Positions 41,424-53,053 of a DNA stretch of 64,000 nucleotides are shown here, piece by piece. Each line of letters starts with the position of its first letter. Within the stretch, counting starts at the first letter, position 1. This DNA comes from an uncultured Gammaproteobacteria bacterium (GTDB taxonomy: Bacteria > Patescibacteriota > Patescibacteriia > Magasanikbacterales > JBBTQS01). The notes below the pieces were generated by a model, which worked only from the letters and a program-made list of their open reading frames with translations, ran no database searches and was not told where the DNA came from. The DNA is taken from contig CAZVIA010000005.1 of the NCBI GenBank assembly GCA_964627525.1, positions 6,078 through 70,077 of the forward strand. The letters are read 5' to 3'. The position numbers and the translations under genes were made by a program.

Positions 41424-44400
41424 TTAAATACTACAATTTATTTTGTCAAAACTACAATCTGGCGCACATTGCAAATCTCCTCCTGTAAATCCAAAATCCG
41501 TACACTGCACACCGCTCATATCCTCATTATCACAAGATTCTTGAGCTTGCCTAACTCCATCACCACAACTTCCACCAGTTAATGTAATTTTTTTACAAGT
41601 ATTACTACAATATATGCAACTACTATTATACAGTGCTGAGCAAATATTACCATTGCTCACTCCATTATCACACTCCTCACCTATTTCAGGTTGCAAAGAA
41701 GCATCCCCACAAATCTTTTCTGGAACTGGTGGAGTTGGTGGTGGAGGTGCATATACAACTTCTGCATTAGGATCTGTTTCAGAACATTCCCAATCAGTAC
41801 TTTTTTCTATTTTACAATCAGATGTACAACCCTTAATCAAATATGCTTTATCTTTTCCAGGTGCACACCACTCTATCACATTTATATTTAAAGTTTCTGA
41901 AATTATAGGATCCCCATCACATTCTTCACCACCATTTATCAATCTATCACCACAATATGGTCCAAAAGCCTTACAATCCCAGTTACATGATTCTGACTTA
42001 GACGAAGCATGAACTGTTTGCACTTGTTCCTTTAGACAAGGCTCTGGATCACTTGTTTTTATTCCAGCTGGTAAATCTTCTACTGGCATTACAAAAGAAA
42101 CTACCTTATCATCTCCTGCAGAATATACACCAACAATTACCATTTGTTTCCCATCAACTGTTTTATAATAAATATCAACTACTTTTTCACAATCCACACT
42201 TTCAGACCCAACAGAACAAGTTCTGTTTGTAAATGCACACCTATTACCCCACACATCACATACCTCACCTTGATTTTCTTGTATAATTCCATCACCACAA
42301 GCACCATAGGCACTAATTTCACTTAAGCAATCTAAACTACAATTATTATAAGCCCCATTAAACGAAGCATTATCACAAACCTCACCACCATTTAGAACAC
42401 CATCTCCACAAAAACCAGTTGGCTGACAATTAACTTGTGACTCTGGCAAATATTTACAATCATTAGGACATTGAATTACAAAAGTACCTGGATATTCCAC
42501 GCTAGAAGCATCACTATACACACAACTTCCATAACTTGCTTTCATTCCAATTTCACACTGCTCTCCCATACTTGGATTTAAAATTCCATCACCACAAACA
42601 CCACCAGCACCAATAAATGTACTTGTTATATCTGTGCATGTTTCAACAAGATCAAATTCAGATAAATCAATACCTTTCCAATCATTTGGTCCACTACTTT
42701 CTAATTCAGCTTTTAATTTATATTCTAAACCACCTTCAGTTGATTGATAAGCATAAACATGAGAACGTTTCATGCATTGATATTGTTGTGAACCTGAATT
42801 CCAACAATTTTCAGAATTAGCACCTGATTCAGCACAACCAATCCTAAATTCATTCAAAGGATCTAATGGCATTTCAATTCCCAAAACAGAACCAAGTTGT
42901 GCTTGCCATGAATCCCAAGCACTAACACTCATAGATGGAATATATGTACCTTGTTGCAACAAAGGTGCGTTTGTGTTTTGCATTTTATAAATTTCAACAG
43001 CTTGTTTAATTTTTTGCAAATCACTCAACCTCACCATGTCTCGTTGCATTTGTTTTTTAACAGACAAGCAATCAATATATTCTTCACTACCTGGAATAAT
43101 TTTTTCTTCAGCAGTTGGAGCTTCAGCTAGACACTCTAATTCTGAAGTACATTGAATTTCTGGTTGCAAAATATTGTAAGCTTTTTTAGATTCTTTTATT
43201 GACGCACAAACACCCTGATCCCACTCTTTATTCAAATTAACATTAAATTCTAGATTATCAATTAATTGTTTGTAAATAATTTTTGTTTCAGCAGATGCTG
43301 TGTCATTATGAGAAATAATATAAATATTTGTATACCTTTCATTAAATTTTCCTTTATCATTAGACCCAGGAGTCAATTTATGATTATTGTTTTCAGTTGC
43401 AACATTAACAGCACTAATATAAATTGTGGCACCATCAACAATAGCCTGGTAACCATCAATTTCAATTACTTCGGGATTACCAGGAAATCCTTGCTCATTG
43501 TACCAATCCATTGGAGACAAATGTTTTAGGTTTTTCTGAACTCTTACACCAATAGCATCTCCATTATCTTGGTTTTGCAAGAAAAATGCTTTTAATAAAT
43601 TTGGATCATCAGCAGTTGAAACAAGCTGACCCTTAGTTAGTCCTGGTAACAAATCTTGAGTTCCATTTCCTCTACAATACCAAGTGCTAAAATTGTGTGA
43701 ACTATCAATCAATGGGAACTGACTATTTTGATATTCAGGCCAAGGATTTTCACACATTGTGTTAGTTAATTCAGCAATACCATAATACTCATTTTCAACA
43801 GTTGAAGGATTAAAGAAAGTATCATGCGTAATTGTTGCTGTTGCACGCAAAATTGCACTACCTTTATTTGGTAAAGCACTTACTATAACAACATCACCAT
43901 CATCACTAACATTTTCAATTTGTGCAATAGTTTCATTACTTACTAACCAACTCCACTCCCACTCATAATCATTTGTTTGAATTAGTGGTTGTGCAACACC
44001 ATTAATCACTGTTTCTGCTATTGCAATAAAATTACCAGCACCTTCAATACCTGGCACAAAAAATACATATTTACCAGGTTCAACACTTACACGATCTATA
44101 TCACAAACCTCAAGACCTGTTGTAAACTGCCAACTTTTATCTTGGTGCATGCTAATACTTTTCTCATTTTTAATATCTTTTCCTAAATTAACATAATAAG
44201 TAGTATTTGCTTTCAAAACCTCTGTAGGAATTATAAACAACTTACTTCTATTAACCACCTTACCCTCAATTATTTCTTGTGCATCTGCTAACTGAATTTC
44301 AAAATCAACCACACCTTCACAATCAAATAATGCATAAGCTGGCTCTACATCAAGCATCTCACGCACAAAATTAACAACTGAAAGCCATGCGCGTCTATAC

Positions 44401-51241: not shown

Positions 51242-53053
51242 TTATTTAGCAGTTGGATTACACGCACTTGATGAAGGATTTCCATTACAACACCAAGGTT
51301 TTGATTCACTTGTGCCACTACACCCCATATCATCTTGCGCTGGATAAAAACAATTATTAGCCATATCCATTATTGAAGACGGCAAATGTGGAATGTATTC
51401 TCCATCTTCATAAAATTCAGTTCCATGATGGATAATAAATTGACCTCTTTCATCATAAAAATCTGCGTGCGGCTCACCTTCTGGAATTACCTCCTCATCA
51501 AATCGCTTAGAAAAACCAACTGCAATTTCTTCAGGATTATTTAATAGCATTGCATCTGAAAAACTACTGTATTGCATTGGTTTTGAAAAAGTAATTACAG
51601 GATCAAGCTCAACGTCTATTTTCGTTGCATTTACTTTTGGCAAAATATTTATAATTTTCGGAGCACTAATATCTTTGTTTCCTGAAGTTGAAAAACTATA
51701 CAAAAAATTATCTTGATCAGGACCACTACTTGTATCATCTTCATTTCCATCCAAAGAATTTCCGACCATATCAACCACACCATTATAACCAGCTGTATTT
51801 GGATAACTTAATAAATTAATAGCTGCAGCTGGCTCACCTGTTGCTGGATTGTTTAATGTTGCTGCTTTTGCCAAAACTTGAATTGCAGCTGGTCCAGGCA
51901 AACAATAAACTTCATTACCACAGGAATTTTTTCCACAAGAATTTTCAGGATCATCTGCTATATATTCAATTGTTTTATAACCATTTGTAATTCTAAAAGT
52001 TCCTTTCACTGCTGTTAAAGCATTTTCTTTTGACTCCCCAACTATTATATTATTAAAACCTTCTGTAACTTTACCAACAACTGCGAGTGGCAAAATAGGT
52101 TCATTAAAAGTAATTTGAATTCCAATGTTGCGCGGAAGTTCTTTTGTTGTGCCAATTTTAGGAAATGTAGAAACAACATGAGGTGGCTCTGAATCCACTT
52201 GAGTACTCACTTCAAACACCCAATCATAATCAGGATTTGCCAAACTAAAAATTGTTTTTCCGTTTGTGTTTAAAATTTCATTTGTTAGTCGAACTGTATA
52301 TTGAACATCTTCTGTGGATAAACCAAGATAATTTGCTGGTTTGAAAATAAAAGTTTTATTATCTGGAGCAACAGTCACTGTGACATTTTTAATTGTTTTT
52401 TCATCTAAAGTTTTTTGTGCATCAGGTCCGCTAATAGGATAAATCTGAATTGCGTTTGTATTTATTGTTTCGCCATCAATAATTGAGTTTTTATCAATCG
52501 GCATTTTAAAAGTAATTACAATCGGAGTGTTTCTTGGAATATTTTTATCCCCACGATCTGGATAATGTGATTCTAAAACAGTTCCAAGCGCACCAGAAGT
52601 TTTAAATGAAATACCTGAACCACCTGTTCCACCAGACCCACTACCAAAAAGATTTGCACCTGTTGCATCATTTAAAGATTTCAAAACAAAATAAGTAATG
52701 CTATATGCAGACATAATTATTACCAAACCAATTCCAGCATTAATTAAAATCTTTTTAGCTTTATCAATCTGATCAGGATTTCCAGCTGCAGTCATCCAAA
52801 TAAAACCACCGTACAAAACCAAACAAATCGCAATAATACCCAAGAAGCCTAAGACCACTTGAACAATATCACCAATTATGGTTTTTATATCTTTATCACC
52901 TAAACTTGTTTGCTGTTGAAATTCATCTAATTCAGTATTGATTTGCGCTGATACAATTTGTGTTTTTAAAACAAAAAAACCAGCGGCCAATATAACACAA
53001 AAAATTGCCACTAAAAACTTTTTCTTGTAACTCAATGGATGTGCCCTATCCAT
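51242..53053 (-). CDS. Surface protein (603 aa) with the same pilin-like N-terminal module plus Ig-like domains; paralog of the N-terminus of the giant protein
   Basis: VVLGFLGIIAICLVLYGGFIWMTAAGN is ~60% identical to residues 60-90 of the neighbouring product. Confidence 0.7.
   Translation of the reverse strand: MDRAHPLSYKKKFLVAIFCVILAAGFFVLKTQIVSAQINTELDEFQQQTSLGDKDIKTIIGDIVQVVLGFLGIIAICLVLYGGFIWMTAAGNPDQIDKAKKILINAGIGLVIIMSAYSITYFVLKSLNDATGANLFGSGSGGTGGSGISFKTSGALGTVLESHYPDRGDKNIPRNTPIVITFKMPIDKNSIIDGETINTNAIQIYPISGPDAQKTLDEKTIKNVTVTVAPDNKTFIFKPANYLGLSTEDVQYTVRLTNEILNTNGKTIFSLANPDYDWVFEVSTQVDSEPPHVVSTFPKIGTTKELPRNIGIQITFNEPILPLAVVGKVTEGFNNIIVGESKENALTAVKGTFRITNGYKTIEYIADDPENSCGKNSCGNEVYCLPGPAAIQVLAKAATLNNPATGEPAAAINLLSYPNTAGYNGVVDMVGNSLDGNEDDTSSGPDQDNFLYSFSTSGNKDISAPKIINILPKVNATKIDVELDPVITFSKPMQYSSFSDAMLLNNPEEIAVGFSKRFDEEVIPEGEPHADFYDERGQFIIHHGTEFYEDGEYIPHLPSSIMDMANNCFYPAQDDMGCSGTSESKPWCCNGNPSSSACNPTAK

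Follow-up and report, generated by a model that had tools for sequence, protein, structure and literature searches.

A conserved Patescibacteria gene pair that places a T4SS-pilin-type hairpin ahead of large, probably extracellular passenger domains

Why should two proteins of 603 and 3271 amino acids (aa) begin with the same two-helix hairpin that makes up a small pilin of type IV secretion systems (T4SS)? The question is raised by two adjacent open reading frames (ORFs), here called P603 and the giant, on the minus strand of a 64,000-nucleotide (nt) window, the whole stretch of DNA that was analysed (positions 6,078 to 70,077 of contig CAZVIA010000005.1, assembly GCA_964627525.1, placed by GTDB in the Patescibacteriota). 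P603 ends in TAA and the ATG of the giant follows 2 nt further on. Our favoured answer, to which we give a probability of roughly 0.55, is that both are VirB2-like pilins with C-terminal passengers displayed outside the membrane, and that their hairpin probably assembles with other pilin hairpins. An earlier sequence-only reading of this DNA had proposed that the passengers are displayed on, or anchored through, a pilin module, which would fit the topology described below.

Both proteins share one N-terminal order: a signal-peptide-like hydrophobic segment ending V-x-A↓Q, an acidic stretch (QI(D/N)T.L..FQ...LGD.DIK), a first helix (VVLGFLGI.AI..VLYGGFIWMTA.GN), a Lys-rich loop (DKAKKIL / LLAKKILK in the two proteins), a second helix and a Gly/Ser-rich linker. 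The giant reads VLA↓QIDTSLGDFQ and VVLGFLGILAILIVLYGGFIWMTAGGN in this region, and P603 reads VSA↓QINTELDEFQ and VVLGFLGIIAICLVLYGGFIWMTAAGN; the ORFs, motifs, loops, second helix and linker all lie where the sequence-only reading had placed them. The A-x-A-type site of P603, at which cleavage is predicted, lines up with the sites of stand-alone pilins, and neither protein has a class III signal peptide or the prepilin-peptidase motif G↓(F/M)TLIE in its first 80 residues. BLASTP aligns the two proteins over 319 aa (37% identity, E 7e-39), covering the module and the first Big_5 domain, and finds no P603-giant alignment beyond the first ~320 residues; the two can be called paralogues, as had been suggested, for those residues and not for the rest. 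When the 135-aa N-termini were searched with phmmer against all six-frame ORFs of the window, each found the other copy (E 2e-37 and 4e-36) and there was no third, the next best match having an E of 0.17.

The sequence-only reading had seen a VirB2/TrbC-like T4SS-pilin hairpin in both proteins, and the profile search it called for agrees, placing both N-termini above the gathering cut-off of PF18895 (T4SS_pilin; 26.6 bits, model length 71 positions). P603 scores 48.3 bits (residues 53-123 on model positions 2-71), and the giant scores 32.8 bits with its first 130 aa, 28.9 bits with its first 420 aa and 26.3 bits, below the cut-off, at full length. Against a hidden Markov model of stand-alone pilins the giant hairpin reaches 136 bits. 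The NCBIfam model NF045849 (Mbov_0395 family, cut-off 40 bits) gives 41.3 bits for P603 and 29.6 bits for the giant; as an equivalog for small proteins of integrative and conjugative elements (ICEs), it attests only domain-level similarity for P603. Used as a database query, the 135-residue module retrieved 113 proteins of Patescibacteria (Parcubacteria, Falkowbacteria, Pacebacteria), every one between 120 and 223 aa long (phmmer E 1e-24 to 1e-12) and nearly every one already annotated as PF18895. Identity to these stand-alone pilins is 33-62% and extends from the signal peptide to the end of helix 2, the point at which the pilins stop, and the invariant residues G72, G83, W86, M87, T88, G91 and G109 are common to fused and stand-alone forms. 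Judged by these profiles, membership of PF18895 at the level of the domain is solid. The evidence bearing directly on homology to canonical TrbC/VirB2 is modest and partly transitive: the relatives P0036, P0031, P0037 and P0057 match PF04956 (TrbC/VirB2) over positions 1-97 of 98 with 24.7-28.6 bits, one of the four above the cut-off of 27.9 bits, and hhalign places an alignment of the module on Agrobacterium tumefaciens VirB2 (sequence of PDB 8CUE) with 57.8% probability (E 1e-4, 57 columns), in a register that sets FIWMTA on ISWMFG and leaves the loop of the module 8 residues longer.

A typical member of PF18895 is small, at ~120-220 aa, ends after helix 2 and is encoded in or near a T4SS cluster; the pair departs from this type both in size, with 603 and 3271 aa, and in location. 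The family itself is very large (80,635 clusters at 50% identity, E <= 1e-3), and in it the hairpin can stand alone, follow a single signal peptide in 2-17 tandem copies or open a long protein. Of the 49 single-module proteins in the set of the 150 best PF18895 representatives, 10 are such fused forms, with lengths of 387-3710 aa. The hairpin is therewith a widely reused building block, occurring by itself, in tandem or as the N-terminal module of giant proteins. Tandem-hairpin proteins include P0287, P0291, P0303, P0357 and P0379, of which P0287 (552 aa) consists of one signal peptide and six hairpins; this suggests "poly-pilins", whose hairpins either pack side by side with both ends outside or are released from processed polyproteins.

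An AlphaFold 2 (AF2) model of P603 (pLDDT, the per-residue confidence, 81.5; pTM, the global one, 0.71) consists of the hairpin, a disordered linker and three beta-sandwich domains. The hairpin helices span residues 56-88 and 93-131 with pLDDT above 90, the signal-peptide helix runs from 7 to 28 or from 10 to 34, depending on the model, and the linker, the equivalent of that of the giant, stays below 50. Hydropathy analysis finds three hydrophobic segments in each protein, all of them N-terminal, and no further transmembrane (TM) segment in either; a motif search detected no LPXTG motif and no RTX GGxGxD repeats in the pair. The N-tails carry a charge of -4 and -5 and the loops a charge of +1 and +2. 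From these segment charges, the topology of VirB2-type pilins and the existence of chained hairpins we infer a hairpin with both termini outside and its basic loop inside, an arrangement that would put the passengers outside the cell on a flexible tether.

The strongest constraint within the P603 family falls on the hairpin. In an alignment of 30 family members the mean pairwise identity is 0.58 in helix 1 and 0.54 in both the loop and helix 2, compared with 0.21 in the signal peptide, 0.28 in the linker and 0.31-0.48 in the three immunoglobulin (Ig)-like domains. As no other region of the family is so well conserved, a generic signal anchor lacking pilin similarity does not describe the hairpin. 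The two hairpins of a genome also resemble each other more than expected: module identity between P603 and the giant is 0.58 within a genome, and between genomes it is 0.47 for P603-giant, 0.48 for P603-P603 and 0.50 for giant-giant comparisons. Ranked among ~71 giants, that of the same genome comes first in 26 of 71 genomes; its median rank is 3. Independent evolution would predict that a genome's own giant is no closer than those of other genomes, and the excess within genomes thus makes the hairpins look co-adapted, to each other or to a shared partner. Recent gene conversion was considered as a source of this likeness and rejected for the window, in which DNA identity between the two modules is ~70% and no run of identical bases exceeds ~17 nt.

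The pair is widespread and its setting is fixed. In a scan of one genome per GTDB species, with synteny read on the 80 best loci, at least 548 species genomes encode a P603 relative, and the P603 family comprises at least 250 clusters of 530-860 aa with the PF18895 plus Big_5 architecture. Its automated names, which include 'pilin', 'Ig-like domain-containing protein' and 'type IV secretion system pilin/Big-like domain-containing protein', show that the fusion of a pilin to a passenger is already visible in automated annotation. The 80 best loci belong to Patescibacteria of ABY1 type, and those with an informative organism name are Komeili-, Falkow-, Uhr- and Magasanikbacteria; Komeilibacteria, Magasanikbacteria and Kerfeldbacteria are assigned to the class ABY1 in a published table (Quinonero-Coronel et al. 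2025). Nearly all loci have the same order, signal peptidase I (SPase I) - HisRS - (small ORF) - YqeY - P603 - giant - TSP3 protein - 423-aa relative - YbeY - FtsA - FtsZ, and the TSP3 protein comes after the giant wherever the locus extends that far. The comparison across related genomes that the sequence-only reading had recommended finds both modules, with 88-141 bits, in 75 of the 80 loci; among the other five, three stop at contig edges and two have a giant homologue in which no module is detectable. Giant orthologues were picked by synteny, a search with the first 900 aa having mostly returned P603-like proteins by way of the common module, and they range from 927 aa to more than 3600 aa. 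Most of the backbone of the giant (residues 1-420, 600-1200 and 1500-3000) recurs in them, and the stretches 450-600, 1250-1400 and 3000-3150 are inserts specific to the window.

Two further observations on these loci may be recorded here. Four of them carry a stand-alone pilin gene (123-165 aa) between P603 and the giant (L022:11878-12264, L054:11896-12264, L082:7071-7439 and L043:8753-9247), and in the three comparable loci the module of this small pilin has an identity of 0.51-0.53 to its own giant and of 0.41-0.44 to the giants of other genomes. Dozens of contigs with the Patescibacteria-specific P603-giant synteny (L004, L010, L011, L015-L017 and others) bear the title 'uncultured Gammaproteobacteria bacterium', which looks like a placeholder or a wrong taxonomy in submissions of metagenome-assembled genomes.

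What do the hairpins carry? The P603 ectodomain is matched by Foldseek to the S-layer protein SbsC (4UJ6, E 1.7e-8, with low TM-scores of 0.15), to the Ig domains of LdtMt2 and to cadherins, with no enzyme fold among the matches; this is a generic resemblance between strings of Ig domains. The giant contains four TIG (67 bits), three Big_5 (64.4 bits) and one Big_7 domain (34 bits) and a match to TIGR02232 (myxo_disulf_rpt, 54.6 bits), together with 11 CG(D/N)G...C(D/E) repeats and 128 cysteines, all of them extracytoplasmic. The Ig-like and IPT/TIG-like domains and about ten myxococcal-type Cys-rich repeats that had been read from the sequence are thereby recovered. Pfam scans of both proteins revealed no SLH or other lattice- or cell-wall-binding domain and no homology to PrgB. 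The insert at aa 439-579 of the giant resembles CBM_4_9 (E 0.03-0.1) and NF048003 (31.2 bits, cut-off 36) and is present in one of 83 related loci. The conserved block at aa 2540-2860 contains the motifs K.KL.RD..RL.DL..I...Y....G..P.L, W.SW and LP.DPLN and, apart from T2SSG at E 0.12, matches nothing in Pfam or the PDB. These motifs are reminiscent of the heads of type IV pilins or pseudopilins, but such a head at ~2690-2800 was not upheld, as the T2SSG match occurs in only one of 13 orthologues and the PDB gives none; it is an unproven lead.

The stand-alone PF18895 pilins of Patescibacteria, of which the essential six-gene array in the T4SS locus of Southlakia epibionticum is an example, have the same domain over their whole length and belong to the same phylum as the pair (PMC10633639, PMC12102498, PMC12857230). 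They share with it the signal peptide, the acidic N-tail, the GFLGI...YGGFxWMTAAGN helix, the KAKK loop and the second helix, and they occur as tandem divergent copies. They are 120-220 aa long and stop after helix 2, whereas P603 and the giant continue for 470 and 3140 residues; and they form a variable array in a T4SS cluster, whereas P603 and the giant are a fixed orthologous pair in a housekeeping block. The pilin-like protein of Mycoplasma ICEs, on which the P603 hairpin matches 72 of the 80 positions of NF045849, links the module to conjugation in wall-less monoderms, although there it is a small mobile-element protein of ~80 profile positions and here it is the N-terminal domain of giant chromosomal proteins. 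VirB2, TrbC and TraA (PF04956; the A. tumefaciens T-pilus, 8CUE, 8EXH) likewise have a long signal peptide, two helices and a short basic loop, and share with the pair the (I/F)xWM(F/T)(G/A) signature at the end of helix 1; the pair differs from them in its longer loop, in its monoderm-type host and in giving no evidence of cyclisation or acetylation. We know of no precedent in the VirB2/TrbC/TraA family for large C-terminal passengers.

A principle of this kind exists among type IV pili, in which modular pilins such as PilB and PilC of Streptococcus sanguinis combine a polymerisation module with a bulky C-terminal adhesive module and are incorporated sparsely or at the tip. By analogy, the pair would be at least topologically like these modular pilins, though of an unrelated class: type IV pilins have a single N-terminal helix and a globular head, and the pair has a two-helix hairpin of VirB2 type. 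To our knowledge the modular-pilin principle has so far been known only for type IV pili, and a literature search found no paper on VirB2-type pilins with large passengers or on this conserved pair; were our reading true, the principle would extend to VirB2-type pilins. PrgB-type conjugation adhesins and giant Ig-repeat adhesins also present long strings of Ig-like, TIG and Cys-rich domains on a monoderm surface, but the pair has no LPXTG motif and no RTX or type I secretion signal and would be anchored N-terminally through the pilin hairpin. The adhesin role is the one presumed to be missing from the T4SS of Patescibacteria. The S-layer protein SbsC (4UJ6, 4UIC) is likewise a chain of Big_5-type Ig-like domains; its anchoring differs and the likeness is generic.

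These data suggest a model for the pair. Sec would export each protein and signal peptidase I would cleave it behind V-x-A, leaving the hairpin in the cytoplasmic membrane with the acidic N-tail and the C-terminus facing outward and the Lys-rich loop facing inward. Everything after helix 2 would then lie outside on a flexible Gly/Ser-rich linker, P603 forming a stalk of three Ig domains and the giant a disulfide-rich string of Ig, TIG and Cys-repeat domains ~3100 residues long. The contacts of the hairpin, with other hairpins or with the machinery, are most likely those of stand-alone pilins, and P603 and the giant may assemble together or join small pilins at the base, the shaft or the tip of the T4SS-type pilus that has been proposed for Patescibacteria. 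Such an assembly would supply adhesive, host-contacting parts to a system in which no adhesin has been detected. The pair and the genes of the two TSP3-type membrane proteins make up a four-gene envelope module, conserved and set in an operon-like block of housekeeping genes. Patescibacteria are ultra-small and host-dependent and account for a large share of uncultivated bacterial diversity, and the pair provides concrete candidates for what a pilin-type apparatus displays outside the cell. Because of their pilin-grade conservation and co-variation, T4SS-dependent assembly into a filament would be the most economical account of the hairpins, albeit an unproven one, and their actual incorporation into a pilus we consider doubtful. 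It is on balance unlikely that the whole picture holds, in which the giant would sit on the tip or shaft of the T4SS pilus essential in cultivated Patescibacteria as the missing host-binding adhesin, P603 would be its co-evolving shorter stalk or adaptor, and the pair, as the first modular VirB2-type pilins, would be the host-contact apparatus of ABY1, an entire class of uncultivated episymbionts.

Several results weigh against our reading. A homopolymeric VirB2-type fibre has no steric room for a passenger of 470 or 3100 residues on each of its subunits, so that only sparse, tip or base positions are conceivable. Neither protein has a direct match to PF04956 listed at E values up to 1, the module profile finds no pilin among PDB sequences, and fold searches, which cannot separate one helical hairpin from thousands of others, return generic helical hairpins and no specific pilin. 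An adhesin function of the passengers is suggested by their domain types alone. No homologue of VirB4, VirB6, VirB3, TrsD, a coupling protein or a pilus ATPase was found among the 39 window ORFs that were scanned with Pfam, nor any T4SS component in the Pfam-annotated flanks of the related loci L001-L003, and the neighbouring genes (SPase I, HisRS, YqeY, YbeY, FtsA, FtsZ) have housekeeping roles. VirB4 is listed as negative for the partial 619-kb genome of a relative, GCA_001873515.1 (L007). The stand-alone pilins closest to the module form arrays of 7-9 tandem pilin genes (L084:9507-12897, L085:8134-12131 and L086:489-6090) with no VirB4 within 10 kb, so a genomic link between this pilin subgroup and the T4SS is not demonstrated; two of the three arrays are directly preceded by a solute-binding-protein gene (SBP_bac_1/8). 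A review treats the T4SS pilus in Patescibacteria as a possibility, not as something observed, and in the one genetically tractable member of the group, which cannot do without its T4SS and its array of VirB2-like pilins, a pilus has yet to be seen and the T4SS has no assigned adhesin (PMC10633639, PMC12102498, PMC12857230). On the other side, a survey found VirB4 in 2,417 of 3,035 Patescibacteria assemblies and a VirB2-like pilin gene near virB4 in only 1,135 of 1,948, so that proximity to virB4 is not a strict feature of these pilins; it placed the T4SS loci of ABY1 next to comF, recG and radA, treated pilins as small proteins and detected no adhesin (Quinonero-Coronel et al. 2025). Two carriers of the pair, GCA_001783215.1 and GCA_001818495.1, appear in its Table S1 as ABY1 and VirB4-positive; the VirB4-positive carriers are Magasanikbacteria RIFOXYD1_FULL_40_23 (L058) and Komeilibacteria RIFOXYD1_FULL_37_29 (L078).

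Could the hairpin be only a membrane anchor or oligomerisation unit, the two proteins forming an S-layer-like or fibrillar scaffold that is independent of any T4SS or pilus and has no host-specific adhesive role? The place of the pair in a housekeeping block next to cell-division genes in nearly all 80 loci would suit a scaffold, as would the conservation of both proteins as orthologues over most of their length, which is unlike fast-evolving, variable adhesins, the position of SbsC as the best match of the P603 ectodomain and the lack of T4SS genes nearby; and a PF18895 family of such size, with multi-hairpin proteins and arrays away from VirB4, implies that many of its members may work in the membrane. 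Yet the SbsC, LdtMt2 and cadherin matches are generic, no lattice- or wall-binding domain was found, and from an anchor alone one would expect neither the full pilin signature nor the highest conservation nor the co-variation within a genome. It is because of these three properties that we do not take the hairpin for a passive anchor; oligomerisation of hairpins in the membrane would account for them as well, and a scaffold of this sort is a serious possibility that falls well short of even odds. If the hairpin does no more than anchor, the pair still belongs to a conserved, class-wide envelope module beside the division genes. The proteins could also be precursors, with proteolysis in the Gly/Ser-rich linker giving a small pilin and a secreted giant protein and the fusion serving co-export or production in fixed stoichiometry. 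Both proteins do have a disordered linker after helix 2, the module ends exactly where stand-alone pilins end, polyprotein-like relatives with several hairpins exist, and SPase I is encoded three to four genes upstream in almost every locus; but the linker has no conserved cleavage motif and is among the least conserved segments, and the SPase I is probably the housekeeping enzyme, which makes processing of this kind improbable. That the pilin likeness is fortuitous, a signal peptide and hydrophobic helices of generic type, might be read from the generic fold matches, the lack of pilins among the PDB hits and the missing direct PF04956 match. Against it stand PF18895 above cut-off on both proteins and NF045849 on P603, the phmmer matches to 113 annotated pilins and the full-length PF04956 matches of relatives, and the identical invariant residues of fused and stand-alone forms; the profile scores effectively refute this explanation, which we hold to be very improbable.

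Table 1. Features of the P603-giant pair and the adjoining envelope genes, in window coordinates.
Feature	Position	Strand	Basis
P603 gene (pilin-Ig fusion)	51242..53053	-	Full length: T4SS_pilin 44.3 bits, Big_5 69.2 bits
P603 signal peptide, aa 1-36, predicted SPase I site VSA↓Q	52946..53053	-	Hydrophobic segment 9-38; model helix 7-28
P603 pilin hairpin, aa 56-131 (helix 1, Lys-rich loop, helix 2)	52661..52888	-	PF18895, NF045849, AF2
P603 ectodomain, three Ig-like beta-sandwich domains (aa 156-285, 286-460, 461-603)	51245..52588	-	AF2; Big_5 in 3 stretches
Giant gene (3271-aa pilin-fused surface protein)	41424..51239	-	ORF; in nearly all loci the orthologue comes immediately after that of P603
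Giant signal peptide, aa 1-38, predicted site VLA↓Q	51126..51239	-	Hydrophobic segment 12-41; predicted cleavage
Giant pilin hairpin, aa 58-130	50850..51068	-	PF18895; 66% identical to the P603 module
Giant Gly/Ser/Thr-rich linker, aa 131-160	50760..50849	-	Sequence
Giant Ig-like Big_5 (aa 164-277) and Big_7 (aa 286-331)	50247..50750	-	Pfam 30.0 and 38.3 bits; homology with Ig domain 1 of P603
Giant lineage-specific insert, aa 439-579	49503..49925	-	CBM_4_9 / GTA-spike-fibre-like, sub-threshold
Giant four IPT/TIG domains, aa ~600-1000	48240..49442	-	Pfam TIG 67 bits; kept in ~73/83 loci
Giant first Cys-rich block, aa 1895-2125, six CG(D/N)G repeats, myxococcal-type	44865..45557	-	TIGR02232 54.6 bits; DUF4215 sub-threshold
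Giant internal Big_5 match, aa 2324-2374	44118..44270	-	Pfam 41 bits
Giant conserved block, aa 2540-2860	42660..43622	-	Kept in ~55-60/83 loci
Giant C-terminal Cys-rich region, aa 2875-3271, five more CG(D/N)G-type repeats	41427..42617	-	Repeat search; LPXTG and other anchors absent
264-aa single-TM protein with TSP3 (calcium-binding) repeats	40603..41397	-	TSP3_bac 45.6 bits; TM 83-116
423-aa single-TM protein, relative of the TSP3 protein	39325..40596	-	TM 88-107; cross-match to the TSP3 protein

Downstream of the pair, the TSP3_bac protein and, after the 423-aa gene, YbeY and FtsA are all encoded on the minus strand, in keeping with the co-directional arrangement that had been described; of the two TSP3-repeat membrane proteins named in that description, the 423-aa one is related to its neighbour and has no Pfam match of its own. 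A terminator scan gave no terminator-like site on the minus strand between 54963 and 37508, in scans whose promoter and terminator counts are no higher than in shuffled sequence. The suggestion that the pair is constitutively expressed is speculation, drawn from the tight co-directional spacing and the lack of a terminator-like site.

Upstream, a basic ORF of 84 aa lies between HisRS and YqeY (53515-53769, minus strand) and is kept at the same place in L001 and L002; we presume that it resembles ribosomal protein bS21. A stretch of ~1 kb at 55893-56928 has a G+C content of 0.43, contains only overlapping ORFs on both strands and has no match in Rfam. Further upstream of the conserved block, the region 56929-63127 encodes a protein weakly matching AAA_22, a methyltransferase, an HNH endonuclease that contains homing-endonuclease repeats (58027-58677) and, at 60614-63127, an 837-aa fused restriction-modification protein (N6_Mtase + HSDR_N_2 + Methylase_S), and is a probable mobile or defence patch.

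Elsewhere in the window, islands of ~50% G+C stand in a background of ~35% (11629-13491 and 28669-30126, both on the minus strand, and also 13887-16152). Their proteins are lipoprotein-like, extremely Cys-rich and contain Dicty_CTDC-like C.D.N.CT.D.C repeats, the second island adjoins a tRNA gene (28433-28506), and the islands may have been acquired horizontally. A surface-glycan cluster at 2628-11473 comprises three GT4 glycosyltransferases, a Wzy_C O-antigen-ligase-like protein and a GHL15 + FG-GAP protein, and a tmRNA gene is located at 21141-21521.

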